A DNA stretch of 64,000 nucleotides, from NCBI GenBank assembly GCA_964572275.1, contig CAZNED010000001.1, positions 5,513-69,512 on the forward strand. Reading direction: 5' to 3'. The DNA is from an uncultured Candidatus Saccharibacteria bacterium (lineage in GTDB: Bacteria > Patescibacteriota > Minisyncoccia > Minisyncoccales > UBA1441). Positions 52,046 through 62,204 of the stretch are shown here, piece by piece. Position numbers and translations under genes: made by a program. Each line of letters opens with the position of its first letter. Position 1 is the stretch's first letter. The notes below the pieces were generated by a model. The model saw only the letters and a program-made list of their open reading frames with translations, made no database searches and was not told the origin of the DNA.

Positions 52046-52653
52046 TCAGATAAAGATTGTATTATAATCCGATAATCTTTAATTAACGTCGGCTTGAGAT
52101 TGATATTATAAGTAGCCACCGCAGGATGATAGAGCGGAATTATTTTCAGTGAAGATCCATCAAGATTACTAATTTTAAAAACACGAGCTTTCAATAGCGT
52201 AATGCCAGGAATTTTTCCATTTTGGATGGCTTGGTCTTCTAAATGATATTTCCTAATTAAGTAATTCGCTGCGAAATTACCCATGGGGCAAATAATACTT
52301 GGATTTATTATTTCAATTTGACGATCTAAATACGGAACACAGGCAGTAATTTCCTGAGATAGAGGGTTGCGATTATTAGGGGGACGGCATTTGAGAATAT
52401 TTGCGATATAAACATCTGCCCTTTTTAAGCCGATTGCTTCTAAAATTTCAGTTAGGATATTCCCTGCCGCTCCACAAAAAGGACGACCTGTCGCATCTTC
52501 TTGGCGTCCGGGGGCTTCACCAATAAACATAATTTTCGCTCGATGATTACCCTCCCCAATCACCGGGCATTTTCTCGTTTGGCTAAGAGAACATTTGCGA
52601 CAAACGATTACCTCATCTTTGATTTTTTTGAGATTTTGATCACAAAGGTCCAT
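52042..52653 (-). CDS. udg: Uracil-DNA glycosylase, family 4
   Basis: CRKCSL, FIGEAPG..ED, GRPFCGAAG, LYHPA motifs. Overlaps the AMPpase 3' end by 14 nt. Confidence 0.88.
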   Translation of the reverse strand: MDLCDQNLKKIKDEVIVCRKCSLSQTRKCPVIGEGNHRAKIMFIGEAPGRQEDATGRPFCGAAGNILTEILEAIGLKRADVYIANILKCRPPNNRNPLSQEITACVPYLDRQIEIINPSIICPMGNFAANYLIRKYHLEDQAIQNGKIPGITLLKARVFKISNLDGSSLKIIPLYHPAVATYNINLKPTLIKDYRIIIQSLSD

Positions 52654-54157
52654 TACCTTTGTAAATATGATAAATCTTATTTTTCCCTAAGGCTTTTAAA
52701 GCAAAATCCAAGCGAGATTGACTAGTGGCGTAAATAGTGAATAGGACATCTCCTTTTTCTACCGACTCACCCACTAATTTATTCAGATAAGTTCCGGCTT
52801 GTTTAATTGTCGGATTACCAAGAGATCGATTAACCCAGCCCAATGCCTTGTTGTCTATCATGCGGACTGAACCAGTTTCTTCTGCCTTAACTTCATGCAC
52901 GATTCCCCCGATCTTGATAGCCTCTGAATCAATCTTGGGATTACCTCCCTGCGCTTCAATAATTCTTTGCATCTTTTTCCACGCTTTCCCGCTGGATAAA
53001 CATTCTAATGCTTGGCGATGCGCCTCGCTCCCCTTTGCTTTTCCTGTCAATTTTAGCATTTCTGCACAATAGTAAACCGCTTTTTTCTGAAGGTCCATAG
53101 GACGATTCTCTTTTTGTTGTAGAACCCTAAGCACATCTCGAGCTTCCAAAGCCGGACCAATTCCCCGACCTATCGGTCCAAAAGAGGCATAGAAGATAAC
53201 TTTAATCTTCATGTCAAACAATTTGCCAAGGGTCAGGAAGAGTTTTTCTATCTCGTATGCTTCTTCCAAAGACTTGACTTTGGCTGTTGGATTAATAGGA
53301 ATATCGACTAATAAATATTTGACATGCATGGCTGCCTTCTTAGCCATGATACTTGTTACCAATTTACTGAATGGTTCAACTGGTAATTCATTTGCGATCT
53401 CAATAATGCGATCATCTGCCGGAGCAATACCATCCGCTCCCCAAACTAAAAATGCGTTATTCTTAGCTAACAATTGCTTTAATTCTGAAGGTGAAAAACT
53501 AACTGGAGCTAATACTTCAAAGGTATCAGCTGTTCCGGCCGGTGAAGTAACTGCCCGCGAAGATGTCTTGGGTATTGTCAATCCTAGGGCGCTTACAATC
53601 GCAACTATGATGGGCGTAATTCTGTTCCCGGCCAATCCTCCAGTCGAATGTTTATCAACGATCATCTGATCACCAAAATCAAATTGATCACCTGTTTCAA
53701 CCATAGCCTTAGTAAGATGGTACAATTCTTTATCGGAAATGCTACTGAAAAATACTTTTGACAAATAGAAAGCTATAACAGCATCGTCTAAGCGCGAATT
53801 GACTATATCTCGTATGATTGACAAAGTTTCCTCATAATCTAACTCTTCACCCTGAAGTCTTTTAGCAATATATTTTACTGATTCTGGTGTTCCTAACAAT
53901 TGAATTTTAATTAATTCAGCATTTTTAATCTTGGTCTTCTTTTTGAAATCATTACATAGCCCAATTTGACCAGGTTTAATAAGCGTACTCGTTAAATTGA
54001 CTGAAACTACTATCGGAGCACCTCCTTTCCAACCCAAGATGAGGCGATCTTTATCGCGAATATCATGGTCATTGGCATCACGTCGATGCAAATAAACAGC
54101 CAATTCGTCGCCTGTTTGGACATCTACGAATTCCGATCTTAATTTAAAAATAATCAT
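52640..54157 (-). CDS. deoA: AMP phosphorylase (archaeal-type thymidine phosphorylase family with N-terminal extension)
   Basis: 505 aa. KHSTGGLAGN, TSSRAVTSPAGTAD, plus the ~85-aa N-terminal domain typical of AMPpase. Context: next to RuBisCO and R15P isomerase. Confidence 0.85.
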   Translation of the reverse strand: MIIFKLRSEFVDVQTGDELAVYLHRRDANDHDIRDKDRLILGWKGGAPIVVSVNLTSTLIKPGQIGLCNDFKKKTKIKNAELIKIQLLGTPESVKYIAKRLQGEELDYEETLSIIRDIVNSRLDDAVIAFYLSKVFFSSISDKELYHLTKAMVETGDQFDFGDQMIVDKHSTGGLAGNRITPIIVAIVSALGLTIPKTSSRAVTSPAGTADTFEVLAPVSFSPSELKQLLAKNNAFLVWGADGIAPADDRIIEIANELPVEPFSKLVTSIMAKKAAMHVKYLLVDIPINPTAKVKSLEEAYEIEKLFLTLGKLFDMKIKVIFYASFGPIGRGIGPALEARDVLRVLQQKENRPMDLQKKAVYYCAEMLKLTGKAKGSEAHRQALECLSSGKAWKKMQRIIEAQGGNPKIDSEAIKIGGIVHEVKAEETGSVRMIDNKALGWVNRSLGNPTIKQAGTYLNKLVGESVEKGDVLFTIYATSQSRLDFALKALGKNKIYHIYKGNGPL

Positions 54158-54169
54158 TATTTAAAAGTA

Positions 54170-55405
54170 TTAATTAGACCAATAAGTCAATGCGCGAGCT
54201 AAAGCTGGACAGCGTTGTGCAGCTTGTGTCAATGGTTCACCAGAAACTGCGGCATCGATAGCCGCTCTCGCTGCTTCTGCTCCAGCCCGAGACCCGTCGG
54301 GATGACCGTGTATTCCTCCTCCAAAATTAATAATCAGATCTGAGCCAAGAATTTTAATTAGGTCTGGCATTAGACCAGGATGGAGTCCCCCTGAAGCAAT
54401 AGGCATTACTGGTTTTAAATTACCCCATTTCGATCTTAAAAAATTATTAATGGGTAGAACATCCGATGCCTCTCCTTCCATTTTACCGACCACTGTTCCA
54501 GTATGCAACTGATCTATGCCAGCCAACCTGGCCATTTTAGCGACAATAAGCATTGTTTGACCATGTTCGGGTGACCGGCTAAACATTGCGTGCCCGGCTC
54601 GATGTCCATGGATAGACATCTGCGGGAATCTGTCCGTTATTTCTTGTACCCCTGCCCAACCTACTGGAGTGATATCAACCATAATACAGCGACCCCCTTG
54701 ATCGGCAACTAATTCTCCGCGTTTGATCATAAGATCAATTGGGCCAGTAATGTTGAAGGCGTATAATTTTGTTTGTCCGGTCTCTTCTTCAACTTTGTGT
54801 TTTACTTCCATAATTTCGGCCACTCTTTGAGCAAAAGGAGAAATGGATAAATCCGTTAAATTTTCATCATCCTTTATCAAATCAACCCCTCCCATCCAAA
54901 CCTGATATGCCAGCTCCGCATTTTGCTTGGGATTTAATCCTATTTTCGGTTTCATAATAGACCCGACAATCGGACGATCATGAATTCCCATCATTTCTCT
55001 CACTCCTGACAATCCCAGAGTTGGTCCATTAAAATTATTAATATAGTCCGTCGGAAATTCTATATCAAGCGCCCTCAATGCTTTTATCTCTTTCATTGAA
55101 AAGATATTTCCCAAAACGCTTGATGCTAATTGCGGCAGATTGCCCATTTCAAAAAGGTTTAAAGGATAAGCTATTTTAACAATTCTTGTTTCATCATTGA
55201 TTTCATAAACATAAGCCGCCAACTCATCAAATATTTTGGAAGACAATCCACCAACAGGAGTCCACGTCCCAACTGATGATTCAGCTGCAATGTTTTCAGC
55301 CGCTTTAATTAAACTCCCTCCATCTTGAGGAGTAACTAAATAAGTAACCAAAACTTCCTTTTCGAGATTCGGTTTTCTATCAAGATGAATATATGAACAA
55401 TTCAT
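54170..55405 (-). CDS. rbcL: RuBisCO large subunit, short form III-like (411 aa)
   Basis: Catalytic motifs are intact: GTWT, IMKPKIGL, GGVDLIKDDENL, HGHRAGHA, HTGTVVGKMEG, ASGGLHPG, FGGGIHGHP. Confidence 0.92.
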   Translation of the reverse strand: MNCSYIHLDRKPNLEKEVLVTYLVTPQDGGSLIKAAENIAAESSVGTWTPVGGLSSKIFDELAAYVYEINDETRIVKIAYPLNLFEMGNLPQLASSVLGNIFSMKEIKALRALDIEFPTDYINNFNGPTLGLSGVREMMGIHDRPIVGSIMKPKIGLNPKQNAELAYQVWMGGVDLIKDDENLTDLSISPFAQRVAEIMEVKHKVEEETGQTKLYAFNITGPIDLMIKRGELVADQGGRCIMVDITPVGWAGVQEITDRFPQMSIHGHRAGHAMFSRSPEHGQTMLIVAKMARLAGIDQLHTGTVVGKMEGEASDVLPINNFLRSKWGNLKPVMPIASGGLHPGLMPDLIKILGSDLIINFGGGIHGHPDGSRAGAEAARAAIDAAVSGEPLTQAAQRCPALARALTYWSN

Positions 55406-55407
55406 GA

Positions 55408-56352
55408 TTAATCAATTTTAGAATTTACCAGCCAAGGAAAGTGATTTTTTGCTCTATCGCTCAATTCGTTTGGTTTGATAATTCCAAATTCCGTAATATA
55501 GCCGGTCAATAACTGAGCTGGAACCCGATCGAAAGCATAATTAATGATTTTCAATCCTTTAGGCGGATAATCCCATACTTCCGATGGTTTGCGATATTCT
55601 ATCTCAATCTCGGTATGTGGATGATACTTCAACAAGGAAGCGGCCGAATAAAAAGGAACTTTCGCTTCCTGCGCAGCCAGAGCCATGCCATAGCTCCCTA
55701 TCTTATTAACAACCGAACCGTCCGATAAAATCGCATCGGCTCCAATAAGGAATAAATCCATTTCGTATTCTTCACCTGATGCTGAAGAAATGAAAAATCC
55801 TGCTGCTGAATCTGTAACCATTGTTACCGGAATGCCCGCCTTTAAAAGTCGGCTTGATGTTATTCTTCCCTGGAAAAGAGGCCTTGTCTCAGTATTGAAT
55901 ACCTCAAAACTCAAACCTGATTCTTTACCCCTGATTAAAATATCGACTACTGTTGCAGAGTGGCAGTGTAGAAATATTTTCTTTTTATCTTTGATCACTT
56001 CTTGGCCAAAAGCCACTATTTCTTCTCGCGCTCGACTAAGTGCATAAAGAAAATCTACTATTGCTATTTCTAATTGATTGCGTAATTCTGCTATATTATC
56101 GGTATTTTTAAAATTTTCATCCCACAACACGCGACGGACAGCATTGTCCGCCAAAGCTTCTGTTGGCCGCGCTGAACGAAGTTTCTGCGCCGCTTGATTT
56201 ATTTTTTTCAGCCAATCTTCTTTGTTTTTACTGGGTACAGCTAATCCATATCTTTTTAATTCCAACAAAGTCGCCTCAGCTACAGCTGTGGCTCCTTGAA
56301 TTTCAATATTTTTAATCTTCTGATAAGTTTTTTCCAAACTAGCTCGAAACAT
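55408..56352 (-). CDS. Ribose-1,5-bisphosphate isomerase (eIF-2B alpha/beta/delta-like, e2b2)
   Basis: eIF-2B family pattern (IQGATAVA, HCHSATV, ETRPLFQGR, IGADAI..DGSVVNKIGS) and operon context. Confidence 0.85.
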   Translation of the reverse strand: MFRASLEKTYQKIKNIEIQGATAVAEATLLELKRYGLAVPSKNKEDWLKKINQAAQKLRSARPTEALADNAVRRVLWDENFKNTDNIAELRNQLEIAIVDFLYALSRAREEIVAFGQEVIKDKKKIFLHCHSATVVDILIRGKESGLSFEVFNTETRPLFQGRITSSRLLKAGIPVTMVTDSAAGFFISSASGEEYEMDLFLIGADAILSDGSVVNKIGSYGMALAAQEAKVPFYSAASLLKYHPHTEIEIEYRKPSEVWDYPPKGLKIINYAFDRVPAQLLTGYITEFGIIKPNELSDRAKNHFPWLVNSKID

Positions 56353-56673: not shown

Positions 56674-59457
56674 TTATTTTCGAAAAGAACAGATTGTCCG
56701 ATAATCGCAAAAGCGGCAATTAAATCCAGGTGTAGCATTAAATTCGCTCTCTTTGACCCGAGTAATAACCTGACTCAAATTCTCTTCTGATTTCAATAAA
56801 TCTTTTGCCAATCCCTTAAAAGACACCTTTTGACCCTCAATGACATAATCTAATGTTAGGCGTACAGGCTTGATGCCTAAAATCCTCTCAGCTACCAATT
56901 GATAGATAAATAATTGCTCTTTATGTTCGTGAAGTATTTTCTTCGGCATTCGTCCGGTTTTATAATCAATTAACTCCAATCCATCATCTGTTATATCAAC
57001 CCTATCTATTTTTCCTCGGAAAGGATGGCCTGCTAATTTTCCCCGAAATTCCTTCTCCAGCCATAAATTGCCATCTGTCTCATAAATTTGAGGCATTTCT
57101 TTTTTCACCCTTTGATAGAATTTCCTCAATCCCTGATGACCATCTTCCTTATATTGACGACGTTGATTATCATCGTAATACCAATCATCGAGCCAACACT
57201 CTTTATAAATCTGCTTCAGCTCTGACCAATTGATTTTTCCATTAGATCGCATCCATTTCTCTGCGAATATCGCTAAAGTTTGATGTAATGTCGTGCCGAA
57301 GCTTCTTTCTGGCCCTCCTTTAGTTGAAACCTTTAGGATATGAGCTAATTTGTACTGATAAGGACAATTTTCGAAACTCGCTAATTGAGTATATGAAAAA
57401 TAATCAGGCAAAGGATAAGATTCTTTAAGATTTATTTTGTTTTTAATTTTCCTGGCACTTATCCTCCTTACTTCTGCTTTATTGTCAAGCCCAAGTTCTA
57501 TAAGAAAGCGAGATGGTTTGCGCAGGCGCTGTCCTCCATGATCCTCAGCCCAAGTAAAATAGAGCCCTTGGCGTGCTCGTGTCATGGCTACAAAAAATAA
57601 TCTTCTCTCTTCTTCAAGATGACGTTCATTATCTTTATCTTCATCGAACCAAGAAATAATGCTATGTTGTCTCTTAGACGGAAAAACTTGATCTACTAGA
57701 TTAACTAAAAAAACGTAATCAAATTCTAATCCTTTAGCCCCATGAATTGTCATAATACGAACCATTCCGGGAATATTCTCTTCTATTATTGACCCTCCCG
57801 AATCTCTCTCCCATTCTATTTGCTCTAAAAAGTAATTTAATCCGAGATCAGGATGATTTCGGGAAAATTCATTTAACTTATCTAAAAAATAATTCAACGA
57901 TTCTGCTTCGGATTGATTGGGAGAAGAACGAAGCCATGTTTTTAAATATCCCGAAGTCTCTAAAAAATCTAAAGTATCTTGCATAGGTGAAATCATCTTT
58001 TGATCCAAATACTCCATCATCCGGTTGGCAGACATTATGCCTTTATCGGATAATCCATTTCTTAAATCAACTCTACTAAAAATCTCTGCTAGAGAATAAC
58101 CTCGTCGCCGGCTTTGGTTCATCAACCATCCTTTTTCTGTTTCTTCCATTTGCCAACAAGGAAAATTAAGATAACGATAAAAAGCTACATCATCATAACG
58201 ATTAATGCGCAGGGTTAGATATGCCATTAAATCCAAGATGATGGACTGTCGATAAAACTCACCAGAAGCCATTGCCTGGACCGGTATTTTCATAAGACGC
58301 AATGATTCTACGAAAGCAGAAACATTATCGTTCGTACGAGTCAAAATGGCGATTTGACTCGGATCGATTTTACGTTTCTGAATCAAATTAACAATTTCCT
58401 CGGCAATTCCTCGAAACTCAGATTCTTTATTATTAAATCGCCAAACTTCTATAATCCCTCTCTCTTTTCGTACTGCTTTTAAACCAATTTCTTTAGATGA
58501 CTTCATCTTTTCACCCCGATTCATAAATGATTGACTCAAATCAATTAAATTCTGAGTCGAACGATAATTATTTTTTAAGACAATTTTTTTAGTATCTGGA
58601 TAATCACTCAAAAATTGATCAACATTTCCATAGTAAGCCCCACGCCACTGGTAAATTGTCTGATCAATGCTTGCACAAACGGTAATATTGCGATCTGTTC
58701 CGAGAAGTAATCGAATTAATTCATATTGAATCTTATTGGTATCTTGAAATTCATCGACTAAAAGATACTTTATTTTATTTTGATAGTAATCTCGCCAATG
58801 TGATTTTTGTTTCAATAATTCATGCATATAGTAAAGCAAATCTCCAAAATCAAACACTCCTTTTTCTAACAATAATTCTTGATAGGCCTTATAGGCACTC
58901 GCCAACTCTTTTCTTCTACTATTCTCTTCTTTATCATTTGACTTATTTTTAAAACTTTTTAGATAGTCTTCAGGGCCTATGGCTTCATCTTTACATCGTC
59001 CAAAATGAGCAATCAGAGCTGAGATCAATGCGTTATTATTTCCCCGAGGACGGTAATAATCGAATTTAAAGCGAGACCAGTTTTGGCGCAACAAGATACG
59101 CAGATCCTGATCTGTCGCAATTTGACATGGACTTGGTAATCCGATTTCTAATCCATGCCTTTCAATTATTTGTTGAGCGAAACTATGGAAAGTATGGATG
59201 GGCAAATCCAAATATTGATTAAGAAAAAGATCATCAGTTCTGGCAATCATTTCTTGTGCTGCTTTTTGGGTAAAAGTTAAGGCTAAAATTTCTTCAGGCT
59301 GGCAAAATTTATTTTTAACCAAATAAGCCAGATGTCTTGTCAAAACTGTCGTTTTGCCGGTCCCAGGGCCGGCGATGACCAATAATGGCCCATTTTCATA
59401 CCTTACAACCTTCGCCTGCTCTATATTTAAATCTCTACATAGATTAACCATATTCAT
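56674..59457 (-). CDS. UvrD/PcrA-family SF1 helicase fused to C-terminal Cas4/AddB-type PD-(D/E)XK nuclease
   Basis: AGPGTGKTT, LVDEFQDT, TIHGAKGLEF, VAMTRA. C-terminus: ENCPYQY, IDRVD..ELIDYKTG, IYQL, CRFCDYRTIC. Confidence 0.88.
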   Translation of the reverse strand: MNMVNLCRDLNIEQAKVVRYENGPLLVIAGPGTGKTTVLTRHLAYLVKNKFCQPEEILALTFTQKAAQEMIARTDDLFLNQYLDLPIHTFHSFAQQIIERHGLEIGLPSPCQIATDQDLRILLRQNWSRFKFDYYRPRGNNNALISALIAHFGRCKDEAIGPEDYLKSFKNKSNDKEENSRRKELASAYKAYQELLLEKGVFDFGDLLYYMHELLKQKSHWRDYYQNKIKYLLVDEFQDTNKIQYELIRLLLGTDRNITVCASIDQTIYQWRGAYYGNVDQFLSDYPDTKKIVLKNNYRSTQNLIDLSQSFMNRGEKMKSSKEIGLKAVRKERGIIEVWRFNNKESEFRGIAEEIVNLIQKRKIDPSQIAILTRTNDNVSAFVESLRLMKIPVQAMASGEFYRQSIILDLMAYLTLRINRYDDVAFYRYLNFPCWQMEETEKGWLMNQSRRRGYSLAEIFSRVDLRNGLSDKGIMSANRMMEYLDQKMISPMQDTLDFLETSGYLKTWLRSSPNQSEAESLNYFLDKLNEFSRNHPDLGLNYFLEQIEWERDSGGSIIEENIPGMVRIMTIHGAKGLEFDYVFLVNLVDQVFPSKRQHSIISWFDEDKDNERHLEEERRLFFVAMTRARQGLYFTWAEDHGGQRLRKPSRFLIELGLDNKAEVRRISARKIKNKINLKESYPLPDYFSYTQLASFENCPYQYKLAHILKVSTKGGPERSFGTTLHQTLAIFAEKWMRSNGKINWSELKQIYKECWLDDWYYDDNQRRQYKEDGHQGLRKFYQRVKKEMPQIYETDGNLWLEKEFRGKLAGHPFRGKIDRVDITDDGLELIDYKTGRMPKKILHEHKEQLFIYQLVAERILGIKPVRLTLDYVIEGQKVSFKGLAKDLLKSEENLSQVITRVKESEFNATPGFNCRFCDYRTICSFRK

Positions 59458-59485: not shown

Positions 59486-59513
59486 TTGACAAATATAAAT
59501 TATGATTTATAAT
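59486..59513 (+). promoter_or_regulatory. Consensus sigma70-like promoter for island C gene (TTGACA-16-TATAAT)
   Basis: TTGACA at 59486-59491, TATAAT at 59508-59513. AAGGAGG at 59535-59541 sits 6 nt before the ATG. Confidence 0.6.
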
Positions 59514-59547
59514 AAGGACATTTCGACAGCATCAAAGGAGGGTATCA

Positions 59548-59769
59548 ATGGTGTGCAGGAAATGTCCTCAGTGTGGGTACATCGCGAGTAGTGCCGATAC
59601 GCGACCATGGACATGCTCAAAGTGCGGGGCGAAGATCTCGGAGCGAGACGATCTCCCTCCGAGCAAAACTCCGGGATGGGTTCCGAGTCGGCGAGGGGGA
59701 GGGCCCGCTAAGCCACCCGTACGGAAGGGTCATCCTTCTCACAAGTGGAATCCGCCATCGCGTCGATAA
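59548..59769 (+). CDS. GC-rich island C: 73-aa zinc-ribbon protein with Pro/Arg-rich tail
   Basis: CRKCPQCG...CSKCG (CxxCxxC...CxxC), a strong SD, GC-rich codons, and a hairpin after the stop. Confidence 0.6.
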   Translation: MVCRKCPQCGYIASSADTRPWTCSKCGAKISERDDLPPSKTPGWVPSRRGGGPAKPPVRKGHPSHKWNPPSRR

Positions 59770-59779
59770 GAAGGTTCCG

Positions 59780-59809
59780 GGAGGGGCGAGCCGTTGGCTC
59801 GCTCCTTTT
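59780..59809 (+). terminator. Rho-independent terminator of island C gene
   Basis: GGAG(GG)GCGAGCC-GTT-GGCTCGCTCC followed by TTTTCC. Confidence 0.65.
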
Positions 59810-59813
59810 CCAT

Positions 59814-60104
59814 TTAATTGCTTGTTTGAAAACCAATTTCTTGATTTTTTTCGGCAATATCATCTATTTTACCGAATTTCTCCTCGTACAATTTCAAACT
59901 ATTTTGAAAAGCAATAATCATCTGTTTAAGATGCTTCGGAGAAGTGATAATTCGAGCCGTAACAATACCTTGGGGTGGTGTAATATGAGCAAAGTCCAAG
60001 ACAAAAGCCTCTTGATTATAAGAGACTTTCATGGCATTGGCATAAGATCCTTTTAATTGATCATCATTAATTTTAAGCCTAATTTCTTGAGGTTGTTGAT
60101 TCAT
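59814..60104 (-). CDS. DUF3467-family protein
   Basis: GSYANAMKVSYNQEAFVLDFAHI....ARIITSPKHLKQMIIAFQNSLKLYEEKFGKI matches my recollection of the DUF3467 consensus. Confidence 0.65.
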   Translation of the reverse strand: MNQQPQEIRLKINDDQLKGSYANAMKVSYNQEAFVLDFAHITPPQGIVTARIITSPKHLKQMIIAFQNSLKLYEEKFGKIDDIAEKNQEIGFQTSN

Positions 60105-60115
60105 TTTTTATTAAA

Positions 60116-60964
60116 TTAATTATCTCCAATCCCAAATAGAATCTTTGCTTCAGATTGCATTTCAGTCAATAAACGATTACTGATCATAAGTTTCTTCGAA
60201 TCAGCTTCTAAAACATCTTTAGCCAACATTAATTTATTCTGGCAAAATACATCTACTAAACGAGATGAACGAAAAGAAGGCAGAATGGTAATAGGATATA
60301 TTCCTTCTTCATCAATCATGCGCTCAATCCCCCGATGAGTAGGATATTTCCATCCCCAAAGGGTTTTCCCGATGCAATTGAAATACTTGATTGCCTCTTG
60401 AGTGAATTCCGTATTAGTTACCATAATTGATTTTACTCGGCTTCCCTGCTTGATCTTATTTTGAACAAAATTCCCTCGTTCCAAATCATCAAATCTGGCA
60501 GCATAAAGCAGAGCTGTAGGTAAATCAACTTTAATCCCTCGCCTATTGTGGTATTTACATTCACCGATATAGACTAACTCATTATTCCAAGCCAAGAAAT
60601 CAACCTCATGACTGACACAATGGCCTTTCATGCGGCATCCCACTTTCACTTGAAATCCCTGGCTTTCAAAAATACGGCCAACATAATTTTCAAAAGGAAA
60701 ACCTGTCGGACCGAGACGTCTCATAGCTTCTGGCAGATTAAAGCGCATCGCCGATCCGGCATCGCTTTTTTTCAATAATTGTTCAACGCGGCGACCAATT
60801 TGAGCCGTATTAACTTGTTCTTTCGTTTCCGATTTTATCTGGTCAGCAACTTCTACGGCAATTTCTCTCGTTGCTCCTGCCTTTCGAGCTGAATCATAGA
60901 TTCTTTGCCAAGAAAACGGTTCGGTTTCACCACTTGATTTAATAACAATCATATTTTTATTCAT
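60116..60964 (-). CDS. ATP-cone domain fused to Mrr-type (PD-(D/E)XK) restriction-endonuclease domain
   Basis: N-terminal ATP-cone pattern (VIKSSGETEPFSWQRI...). Then FENYVGRIFESQGFQV....HEVDFLAW..LVYIGECKY...IMVTNTEFT, a Mrr_cat-like D..ExK core. Confidence 0.7.
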   Translation of the reverse strand: MNKNMIVIKSSGETEPFSWQRIYDSARKAGATREIAVEVADQIKSETKEQVNTAQIGRRVEQLLKKSDAGSAMRFNLPEAMRRLGPTGFPFENYVGRIFESQGFQVKVGCRMKGHCVSHEVDFLAWNNELVYIGECKYHNRRGIKVDLPTALLYAARFDDLERGNFVQNKIKQGSRVKSIMVTNTEFTQEAIKYFNCIGKTLWGWKYPTHRGIERMIDEEGIYPITILPSFRSSRLVDVFCQNKLMLAKDVLEADSKKLMISNRLLTEMQSEAKILFGIGDN

Positions 60965-61701
60965 AATGCCAAATAATTAATAAAAGCACCTAGAAAACAA
61001 AGAATTGAAAATAGAAAAGCCCAAAAAGCAAAACTAATCCGTTGACTTATTTTTAATAATAGACGTAAAGAAATAAGACCTACGATAAAACTCGTGATTA
61101 GAGCCGGCCAACTTGTCCAAATTAAAACTGGTTCTTGCCAAATCAAATAGAGACTTGAGGTTAAAACAACAGGAAGAGACATCAGATAAGAAATTTTCAA
61201 TATTTCAGTTGAATTAAGATTCGCGAAAGACAATCCAAATATAGTTGACCCTGATCTTGAAAATCCGGGAATAGCTGATAATCCTTGTAAAAAACCGACT
61301 AAATAAGGCATTTTATCTAACCTCCATCCTTTATTCCGGTGCATCTTATGCATCCACGCAGTTATCATTAGACCAATTCCTGTTATAAACAACAATAAAG
61401 GTCCGATAACCATGTTCCTGACAAATCGATAAATTGGGAATCCAATAATCAATGAAATGATTGTTGCTATAATCAAGAATTTTAATAATCTGGGATTTTC
61501 TAATTTTAATAATGAAATCCAATCTTTACGAAAATAGACCAGTACCGCTATCATTGTTCCTAAATGCAGAAAAAGGGCAATATCTATCTCATTCACTCCC
61601 AACTCCATAAATCGACTTGTAAGCGCCACTATTCCCTGGCTAGATATAGGAAGCCACTCTGTAATGCCTTGGATGACTCCTAATAATAAATAAGACCACA
61701 T
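60961..61701 (-). CDS. uppP: Undecaprenyl-diphosphatase
   Basis: GITEWLPISSQG, SRSGSTI motifs, polytopic. The ORF-track start at 61752 is a TTG; the ATG at 61701 fits the family N-terminus better. Confidence 0.88.
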   Translation of the reverse strand: MWSYLLLGVIQGITEWLPISSQGIVALTSRFMELGVNEIDIALFLHLGTMIAVLVYFRKDWISLLKLENPRLLKFLIIATIISLIIGFPIYRFVRNMVIGPLLLFITGIGLMITAWMHKMHRNKGWRLDKMPYLVGFLQGLSAIPGFSRSGSTIFGLSFANLNSTEILKISYLMSLPVVLTSSLYLIWQEPVLIWTSWPALITSFIVGLISLRLLLKISQRISFAFWAFLFSILCFLGAFINYLAL

Positions 61702-61791
61702 ATGCGCATTATAGCCCAAAGCAGAAACGGCGTCTAACAAAATGTCCTCCAAGGAAAGTATCCGAAGATAAAATCCACAGAGGACACTGTT

Positions 61792-61819
61792 AGTATAACT
61801 GACTATGTTTTTTTGTCAA
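61792..61819 (-). promoter_or_regulatory. uppP promoter (TTGACA-16-TATACT)
   Basis: On the minus strand, TTGACA at 61819-61814 and TATACT at 61797-61792. Confidence 0.5.
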
Positions 61820-61836
61820 GTATCTTAATTCATCTT

Positions 61837-61883
61837 AAAAGAATCTTCCCCCACCTAGCCAGGAACACCCGACCAGATGGGGG
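61837..61883 (-). terminator. Strand-specific GC-rich hairpin after island D gene
   Basis: 13-bp stem, 61848-61860 with 61871-61883. Its three non-Watson-Crick positions are G-U on the minus-strand RNA but C-A on the plus strand. A UUUU tract follows after 7 nt. Confidence 0.45.
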
Positions 61884-61903
61884 AAACACGGTGCACCCAG
61901 TTC

Positions 61904-62095
61904 CTACTGGGGTCGCAGAGGATTTTCGTCATCCTCGAGCTTCTCCTTGGGGATGATCGTCTCCTCGAACACCTCGAGACGATAATCTCCGCTCGGAGCA
62001 TATCCGACGACTCGCGCCTTGAACTTCTGGACGCAGATGCCGTCAGCTTCGTCCTTTTGGACCAGAACTGTCCCCACCGGATACTTCCACGTCAT
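61904..62095 (-). CDS. GC-rich island D: 63-aa soluble protein, unknown function
   Basis: The ATG at 62095 lies 5 nt after GAGGTGA (62107-62101). Beta-rich sequence MTWKYPVGTVLVQKDEADGICVQKFKARVVGY... No family recognised. Confidence 0.5.
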   Translation of the reverse strand: MTWKYPVGTVLVQKDEADGICVQKFKARVVGYAPSGDYRLEVFEETIIPKEKLEDDENPLRPQ

Positions 62096-62114
62096 GATCA
62101 TCACCTCAAGATTT

Positions 62115-62142
62115 ATATTACAATATCTGCATAATTTGTCAA
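62115..62142 (-). promoter_or_regulatory. sigma70-like promoter for island D gene (TTGACA-16-TAATAT)
   Basis: On the minus strand, TTGACA at 62142-62137 and TAATAT at 62120-62115. Confidence 0.5.
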
Positions 62143-62204
62143 TAGGATTAGTACAACAAAAACACTGGTCTTCATCCTTTATTGAGATATATTATCCAAA
62201 AAAA

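Follow-up and report, generated by a model that had tools for sequence, protein, structure and literature searches.

ATP-cones are known almost wholly from ribonucleotide reductases (RNRs) and NrdR. In NrdR, which provides the precedent for an ATP-cone that controls DNA binding, mutation of V48, K50, E56 or K62 abolishes nucleotide binding (PMC9110341). A D38/E51/K53 catalytic triad has been predicted for AF1548 of Archaeoglobus fulgidus (PMC1821046), and a nucleotide (AMP) pathway has been described in the candidate phyla radiation (CPR; PMC5113843 and PMC6389311), with no nuclease or ATP-cone protein being named in that pathway in either paper. Here, the fusion of an ATP-cone to an AF1548-type nuclease is described from a 64,000-nucleotide stretch of DNA (hereafter, the window) of an uncultured Candidatus Saccharibacteria bacterium (contig CAZNED010000001.1, positions 5,513 to 69,512). 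The open reading frame (ORF; 60116..60964, minus strand) encodes a 282-aa protein composed of an ATP-cone, an AF1548-type PD-(D/E)XK core and a C-terminal helical domain. All coordinates are given in the numbering of the whole window. An initial annotation, made from the sequence alone, paired this gene with a DUF3467 gene and proposed a nucleotide-sensing nuclease module acting in defence or in nucleic-acid turnover; the strand, which is minus for both genes, was absent from it.

The ATP-cone (aa 5-74; 60743..60952, minus strand) was identified with the Pfam hidden Markov model (HMM) PF03477 (E=2.7e-9, 37.9 bits against a cut-off of 25.8) and was matched in 29 of 30 aligned family members. 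The AlphaFold model of the 282-aa protein (pLDDT 93.9) contains the β-hairpin and four-helix fold of ATP-cones, and this domain aligns over ∼80 residues with the ATP-cones of NrdR and RNRs (Foldseek, rmsd 1.6-2.2 Å). The predicted nucleotide pocket comprises K9, E15, F17, R21 and T53. Among 143 full-length representatives of 50%-identity clusters, on which all counts of residue conservation are based, K9 is present in 130, E15 in 119, F17 in 126 (with tyrosine in a further 14), lysine or arginine at position 21 in all 143 and T53 in 126. V7, the equivalent of NrdR V48, is also conserved, within the same range of 119-143 representatives. Because the equivalents of NrdR V48, K50, E56 and K62 are kept, as are F17 and T53, binding of ATP or dATP by this ATP-cone appears likely from the pocket residues.

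The motifs FENYVGRIFESQGF, HEVDFLAW and IGECKY, which had been noted initially, are all found in the protein. The PD-(D/E)XK core spans aa 88-200 (60365..60703, minus strand), with D122 encoded at 60599-60601, E135 at 60560-60562 and K137 at 60554-60556, and the LGPTGFPFE motif (aa 84-92; 60689..60715, minus strand) ends in the first catalytic acidic residue, E92. G85, G88 and F91 of this motif are invariant (143/143 each), E92 is present in 142 of the 143 representatives, and D122, E135 and K137, which align with D38, E51 and K53 of AF1548, are each present in all 143; the absence of catalytic D/E/K residues was thus not seen. The window protein scores just below the cut-off for Mrr_cat (PF04471; 20.1 bits vs 21), a domain matched by all 30 aligned family members at E≤0.1 (best E=1.4e-7), and below that for AF1548-like_C (PF22357; 19.4 bits vs 23.9), likewise matched by 30/30 members. 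Homology to AF1548 itself (PDB 1Y88) extends over aa 93-278 (E=2.4e-26 in a single-sequence search and 2.4e-40 in a profile search; 34% identity), and the AlphaFold model superimposes on 1Y88 with a TM score of 0.83 (Foldseek). Both sub-threshold calls are considered to hold because all 30 homologues match both domains and because of the homology to 1Y88. This homology and the structural match also mean that 'Mrr-type', the label used in the initial annotation, applies at the level of the fold only.

Neither Mrr_N nor any other modified-DNA reader domain was found in the protein, the N-terminus being formed by the ATP-cone. The two domain searches that had been proposed as a check gave one clear result (PF03477) and one just under its cut-off (PF04471) with the relatives matching, and what stands of the Mrr assignment is the PD-(D/E)XK fold, the core being more precisely AF1548-like. 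As judged from sequence, the protein joins an ATP-cone to a PD-(D/E)XK nuclease of the AF1548 type whose catalytic site is intact, and the fusion proposed initially is real, its catalytic and nucleotide-pocket residues both being conserved. The AF1548-like C-terminal helical domain (aa 223-274; 60143..60298, minus strand) is preceded by an invariant YPxTxLP linker. The window protein has only a degenerate form of a motif, 'L..(L/I)G(I/L)S', that resembles a helix-hairpin-helix and is found in this domain in orthologues. From the orthologue motif and the SCOP classification, the domain may be of the helix-hairpin-helix kind, and it probably binds the nucleic-acid backbone. A profile of the C-terminal domain alone retrieved nothing but 1Y88 from the PDB. 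With TIGR00244 (NrdR), the window protein reached 13 bits against a cut-off of 124.65 and showed no Zn-ribbon, and a search of the viral structures in BFVD returned only generic PD-(D/E)XK and RNR ATP-cone matches.

A profile search over 1.84 billion representatives assigned 530 clusters (50% identity) to the family at E≤1e-30 and 1508 at E≤1e-3; among the best 150 clusters, nearly all members are 270-290 aa in length and cover both domains. At least 594 confirmed nuclease loci were found in a scan of species-representative genomes. Most carriers belong to Patescibacteria, and the others include Bacteroidota, Kapaibacteriota, Acidobacteriota (a Thermoanaerobaculia genome), a Pseudomonadota metagenome-assembled genome, an archaeon and, within Chlamydiota, Criblamydia, where the copy resides on a plasmid. 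Both the nuclease and DUF3467 genes are under purifying selection (dN/dS ∼0.10-0.17, with synonymous sites saturated). Members are named 'ATP cone domain-containing protein', 'restriction endonuclease' or 'ATPase' at NCBI, and no paper on the function of the fusion was found in the searchable literature. The architecture is thus already catalogued under generic names, and its function is undescribed in that literature, as the initial annotation had supposed.

The neighbourhoods of the gene connect it to nucleotide catabolism in several phyla, and this gene-context link is new as far as the searchable literature shows. On plasmids of Pontibacter (Bacteroidota) and Criblamydia (Chlamydiota), the nuclease gene heads a tight cassette in which it is followed, in this order, by genes for a β-CASP metallo-β-lactamase (MBL) hydrolase, a member of the thymidine phosphorylase (TP)/AMP-phosphorylase family and a ribose-phosphate pyrophosphokinase (PRS); the Criblamydia cassette is flanked by genes for glycogen phosphorylase, phosphoketolase and acetate kinase. 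In a Kapaibacteriota locus (L057; L-numbers denote the loci or contigs of relatives that were compared), the nuclease gene is followed by the phosphorylase gene and then by the pyrophosphokinase gene. The order nuclease and then β-CASP was found in five Bacteroidota loci (L047, L055, L067, L069 and L074) and in the metagenomic L180, which with L179 forms a pair of short contigs that added one further case of this order. The gaps between these cross-phylum catabolic partners are 0-15 nt. The β-CASP proteins of the cassettes resemble aCPSF1/Cas14-type ribonucleases. The phosphorylases encoded at these loci are of the archaeal type (NF003338/TIGR02645), a subfamily that neighbours AMP phosphorylase (TIGR03327), and score 437-506 bits on the AMP-phosphorylase model, the cut-off of which is 535.

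In the window, the nucleotide-catabolic pathway into which the nuclease is proposed to feed lies on the minus strand, where R15P isomerase (e2b2; 55408-56352), type III RuBisCO (54170-55405; 503.9 bits, with the cut-off at 497.45) and an enzyme of the AMP-phosphorylase type (deoA; 52640-54157; NF003338/TIGR02645, likewise scoring as the cassette enzymes do) are encoded consecutively (52640..56352) in the compact gene order of the CPR/archaeal AMP pathway. The nuclease gene is located upstream of this e2b2-RuBisCO III-deoA set in the window and also in L081, L082 and L088. A connection with stress functions was seen as well: genes for universal stress proteins (Usp) flank the flavobacterial nuclease copies, and nuclease-β-CASP pairs are often located beside them. 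A Bradyrhizobium MBL-PRS-TP trio (bll3115-3117) is induced under microoxia (PMC6515984), and on proteobacterial plasmids the MBL-TP-PRS trio resides, mostly without the nuclease gene, in stress islands containing genes for Usp, alcohol dehydrogenase and P-type ATPase.

The reading that we favour, tentatively and with somewhat less than even confidence, is that of an adenylate-gated housekeeping nuclease feeding nucleotide salvage or catabolism under energy limitation. If the ATP-cone works as it does in RNR and NrdR, binding of adenine nucleotides would alter the oligomeric state of the protein, and this change would switch the nuclease on or off according to the cellular ATP/dATP status. The nuclease would then begin salvage or catabolism by controlled cleavage of nucleic acid, whether the cell's own or imported; the fragments would be trimmed to nucleoside monophosphates, and AMP-phosphorylase-type enzymes would turn these into ribose-1,5-bisphosphate, which in the window organism would feed R15P isomerase and type III RuBisCO. 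A more specific proposal, possible but on the whole doubtful, is that the protein fills a gap at the entry to nucleic-acid catabolism, as an enzyme that is gated by the energy charge and opens RNA or DNA when the adenylate status falls. Its products would pass through β-CASP trimming and AMP-phosphorylase-type cleavage to the ribose-1,5-bisphosphate/RuBisCO route in CPR and, outside CPR, would go to the MBL-TP-PRS stress cassette. The second suggestion of the initial annotation, nucleic-acid turnover in an organism that scavenges nucleotides, fits the conserved neighbourhoods.

Several observations weigh against the favoured reading. More than 70 of 80 Patescibacteria loci contain no salvage gene within 6 kb of the nuclease gene, its neighbours there being MnmA, YceG, YchF, AlaRS and others of this kind. 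The nuclease and pathway genes of the window clade are set apart by a helicase-nuclease gene of 2.8 kb, and the link to the pathway may therefore be plain synteny. The two annotated cassettes both reside on plasmids; spread of the whole cassette is possible and would leave fewer independent observations. In the ATP-cone, the arginine of the canonical K-R pair (NrdR R51) is replaced by alanine or serine at position 10. Finally, DNA-repair genes (PDDEXK_1, Ogt, UDG, Fpg and UvrD) also recur nearby.

These repair genes bear on the main rival explanation, in which the protein is a structure-specific (Hjc/XPF-like) endonuclease in repair or recombination and the ATP-cone ties DNA processing to the supply of dATP and ATP for resynthesis. 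We regard this as unlikely, although not negligible. A stand-alone PDDEXK_1 nuclease gene is a neighbour in 12 of 80 loci and in L097, Ogt occurs in five loci and UDG in four, Fpg is encoded directly downstream in L085 and L087, and the window clade carries the UvrD-PDDEXK_1 helicase-nuclease. However, these neighbours fall within two or three syntenic blocks of Patescibacteria, in which tRNA and cell-wall genes lie among them, and thus represent few independent events, whereas the partners found across phyla at gaps of 0-15 nt are the catabolic ones. The helix-hairpin-helix-like motif of the orthologues would suit a structure-specific enzyme, as would a weak similarity to Hjc (PF01870; E=0.0097), but the latter is below threshold (16.3 bits vs 21.1), with 4 of 30 members matching weakly. 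It is very improbable that the protein is a non-catalytic regulator in which the nuclease fold serves as a DNA-binding module under the ATP-cone, in the manner of the NrdR Zn-ribbon. NrdR sets a precedent for such control (PMC9110341), inactive restriction-endonuclease folds are known, and one weak match to NA-iREase1 was found among the 30 members; nevertheless, the retention of E92, D122, E135 and K137 in 142-143 of the 143 representatives is a pattern typical of active enzymes, and no conserved target operon was found nearby.

An anti-phage nuclease, Mrr-like or acting by abortive infection and triggered when infection perturbs ATP or dNTP pools, was the first role proposed for this locus and is improbable. 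The PD-(D/E)XK Mrr_cat fold would be compatible with it, and the combination of sensor and nuclease follows the logic of CARF/SAVED effectors, with weak Foldseek matches to Cdn1 and Can2. In PADLOC, however, the nuclease gave no significant match, the best being CARF_PDDEXK (E=0.0024 over 55 residues of the nuclease part only), and DUF3467 gave none. A neighbourhood census of more than 90 nuclease loci revealed no restriction-modification, CRISPR or other defence genes; the neighbours are housekeeping or metabolic genes (MnmA, YceG, YchF, AlaRS, MgtC, PPDK and enolase), together with those for HD proteins, Ogt, UDG and PDDEXK_1 nuclease. The family was not found in IMG/VR or in 50,697 phage records (tblastn), and a tblastn search of 72,556 plasmids located it on two, in both cases inside a metabolic cassette. 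Stable synteny, a single copy per locus, a dN/dS of ∼0.1 and the lack of a DNA-modification reader domain also argue against a defence role. Toxin-antitoxin pairs are located two genes upstream in L081 and L083, but these insertions are not part of the uppP-nuclease unit and vary from one relative to another. A defence system as the principal explanation was accordingly rejected on the PADLOC, IMG/VR, phage and plasmid tblastn and census results. The homologues sit in stable housekeeping and metabolic contexts, which the initial annotation itself had named as speaking against defence. The protein is not an immune nuclease, and the ATP-cone nucleases constitute a conserved, non-mobile and non-defence family. 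This result speaks against classing the nuclease-DUF3467 pair among the defence systems.

The DUF3467 ORF (96 aa; 59814..60104, minus strand; PF11950, 59.1 bits against a cut-off of 25) begins 11 nt downstream of the nuclease gene on the same strand, exactly as first reported, and is a clade-specific neighbour. Relatives with at least 47% identity keep the nuclease-then-DUF3467 order (P0003, P0009, P0017, P0019 and P0023; P-numbers denote relatives with this order), and one relative at 53% identity has no DUF3467 gene next to the nuclease gene. Among 80 diverse nuclease loci, a DUF3467 gene was found nearby in two (L003 and L022; jackhmmer), and a reverse survey found the nuclease at 6 of 80 DUF3467 loci. 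In a neighbour-joining tree, the order seen in the window forms a single clade with one loss, and juxtapositions in the opposite order arose separately in L097/L098 and in L022. The main context of DUF3467 is hrcA-grpE-dnaK-DUF3467-(conserved 320-380-aa protein, e.g. 379 aa)-dnaJ, a chaperone gene being located within three genes of DUF3467 in 33 of 82 loci; ftsZ is the second commonest neighbour, with DUF3467 directly upstream of it in ∼9 further loci. Because DUF3467 is mostly embedded in the heat-shock operon, a chaperone-related role is suggested for this family. These low counts, the restriction of the order to one clade and the dnaK-operon context indicate that the pairing is lineage specific, and the obligate nuclease-DUF3467 module was rejected on the adjacency counts and the tree. 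DUF3467 is thus not a dedicated partner of the nuclease, although the three separate juxtapositions give at most a weak hint of a functional link. Its heat-shock-operon loci range over L102-L173 (e.g. L111 490-5600, L160 and L162), and the domain consists of four to five strands and one long helix, with no match in the PDB.

The nuclease gene is chromosomal and vertically inherited. Its start overlaps by 4 nt (ATGA) the stop of uppP/bacA, encoding undecaprenyl-diphosphatase (60961..61752, minus strand), and this overlap is also kept in L081-L085 and L087. A sigma-70-like promoter (TTGACA-16-TATACT; 61792..61819, minus strand), which as a consensus match only is the putative start of an operon, is located upstream of uppP. 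A G+C-rich hairpin (59779..59809, no strand assigned) is located between the convergent DUF3467 and small zinc-ribbon genes, and its stem is preserved in L081 through compensatory changes; it is likely to be a terminator for both genes. The ATGA overlap, the promoter-like site and the hairpin after DUF3467 suggest that uppP, the nuclease gene and DUF3467 form a single three-gene transcript. The region that separates dtd from uppP is a minor site of variation among the relatives, containing a RelB-YafQ pair in L081/L082 (L081 3529-4061) and a nucleotidyltransferase-HEPN pair in L083/L084 (L083 795-1815); its counterpart in the window (61753-62204) is limited to one ORF of 66 aa and a long hairpin (61845-61886).

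The clade-conserved downstream neighbour is a 927-aa UvrD-family helicase fused to a C-terminal PDDEXK_1 nuclease (56674..59457, minus strand). The helicase is of the UvrD/PcrA type and its PDDEXK_1 part is RecB/Cas4-like, the whole resembling a single-chain AddA; its match to the GajB models of PADLOC (E=4.6e-101) reflects generic UvrD similarity, and no GajA is encoded nearby. Elsewhere in Patescibacteria, a similar site downstream of the ATP-cone nuclease is held by a stand-alone PDDEXK_1 protein of ∼260 aa. Between the helicase and DUF3467 genes, a G+C-rich island on the plus strand (59486-59809; ∼60% G+C compared with ∼37% for the window) begins with a perfect TTGACA-16-TATAAT promoter (59486-59513), ahead of a 73-aa zinc-ribbon ORF (59548..59769, plus strand) with CxxC...CxxC motifs and a Pro/Arg/Gly-rich tail ending in HKWNPP. 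The CxxC motifs and the HKW.PP tail are retained in L081 despite nucleotide changes. The island at 59535-59810 gave no Rfam match at gathering or E-value thresholds, and its interpretation as a structured RNA was rejected, the small zinc-ribbon gene conserved in L081 being the better explanation. In other genomes, 126 plasmid records carry an archaeal-type thymidine/AMP phosphorylase, and β-CASP/phosphorylase/PRPP-synthetase-like cassettes are common on proteobacterial plasmids, as in L176 (5619-9393), L177 (5628-9378), L178 (7049-9384), L174 and L175. The islands that hold these cassettes contain Usp, alcohol dehydrogenase, GNAT and P-type ATPase genes, and the biochemical role of the cassette is apparently undescribed. 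In a single case (L089 1-2213), an anaerobic RNR is encoded ∼3 kb upstream of the nuclease gene; it comprises NrdG and an NrdD that carries both an ATP-cone of its own and a LAGLIDADG insertion.

If the more specific proposal of an energy-charge-gated entry enzyme is true, control of a nuclease by an ATP-cone would become known for the first time, and the proposal would explain how minimal-genome symbionts and starving bacteria meter their self-digestion. With the same sensor on an active-looking nuclease in a conserved family of ∼500 clusters, ATP/dATP allostery would also cover the cleavage of nucleic acids. A testable idea of how nucleic acid enters the CPR RuBisCO pathway, a step left open in PMC5113843 and PMC6389311, follows from the gene links. 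Cultivable carriers exist (Pontibacter, Salinimicrobium and Gaetbulibacter), and the idea is therefore directly testable.

The family resembles several described systems in part. With Mrr and other type IV restriction endonucleases it shares the PD-(D/E)XK fold, but it differs from them in having no Mrr_N or modified-DNA reader and in its non-defence context, and the window protein scores 20.1 bits for Mrr_cat against a cut-off of 21. The effectors of CBASS and type III CRISPR systems (Can2/Card1, Cap4 and Cdn1) follow the same design of a nucleotide sensor joined to a restriction-fold nuclease and gave weak structural matches; their sensors, however, are CARF or SAVED domains for second messengers, whereas here the sensor is an ATP-cone with ATP/dATP as the presumed ligand, and no cyclase or CRISPR genes are located near the ATP-cone nuclease. 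With respect to pathways, the nuclease gene is physically linked upstream of deoA-e2b2-RuBisCO III in the window clade and is located directly upstream of β-CASP, phosphorylase and PRS genes in three other phyla, whereas most of the MBL-TP-PRS stress cassettes on proteobacterial plasmids lack it. AF1548 is a structural-genomics protein without an experimentally determined function; it has 199 aa and lacks the ATP-cone but contains the same nuclease core and C-terminal domain with the same D/E/K triad. In NrdR, the output domain is a Zn-ribbon DNA binder rather than a nuclease, and the nuclease family does not keep R51 and has no consistent link to nrd genes. The two nevertheless share the same ATP-cone fold, in which the equivalents of V48, K50, E56, F58 and K62 are kept, and by analogy their common principle is likely to be nucleotide-dependent oligomerisation.

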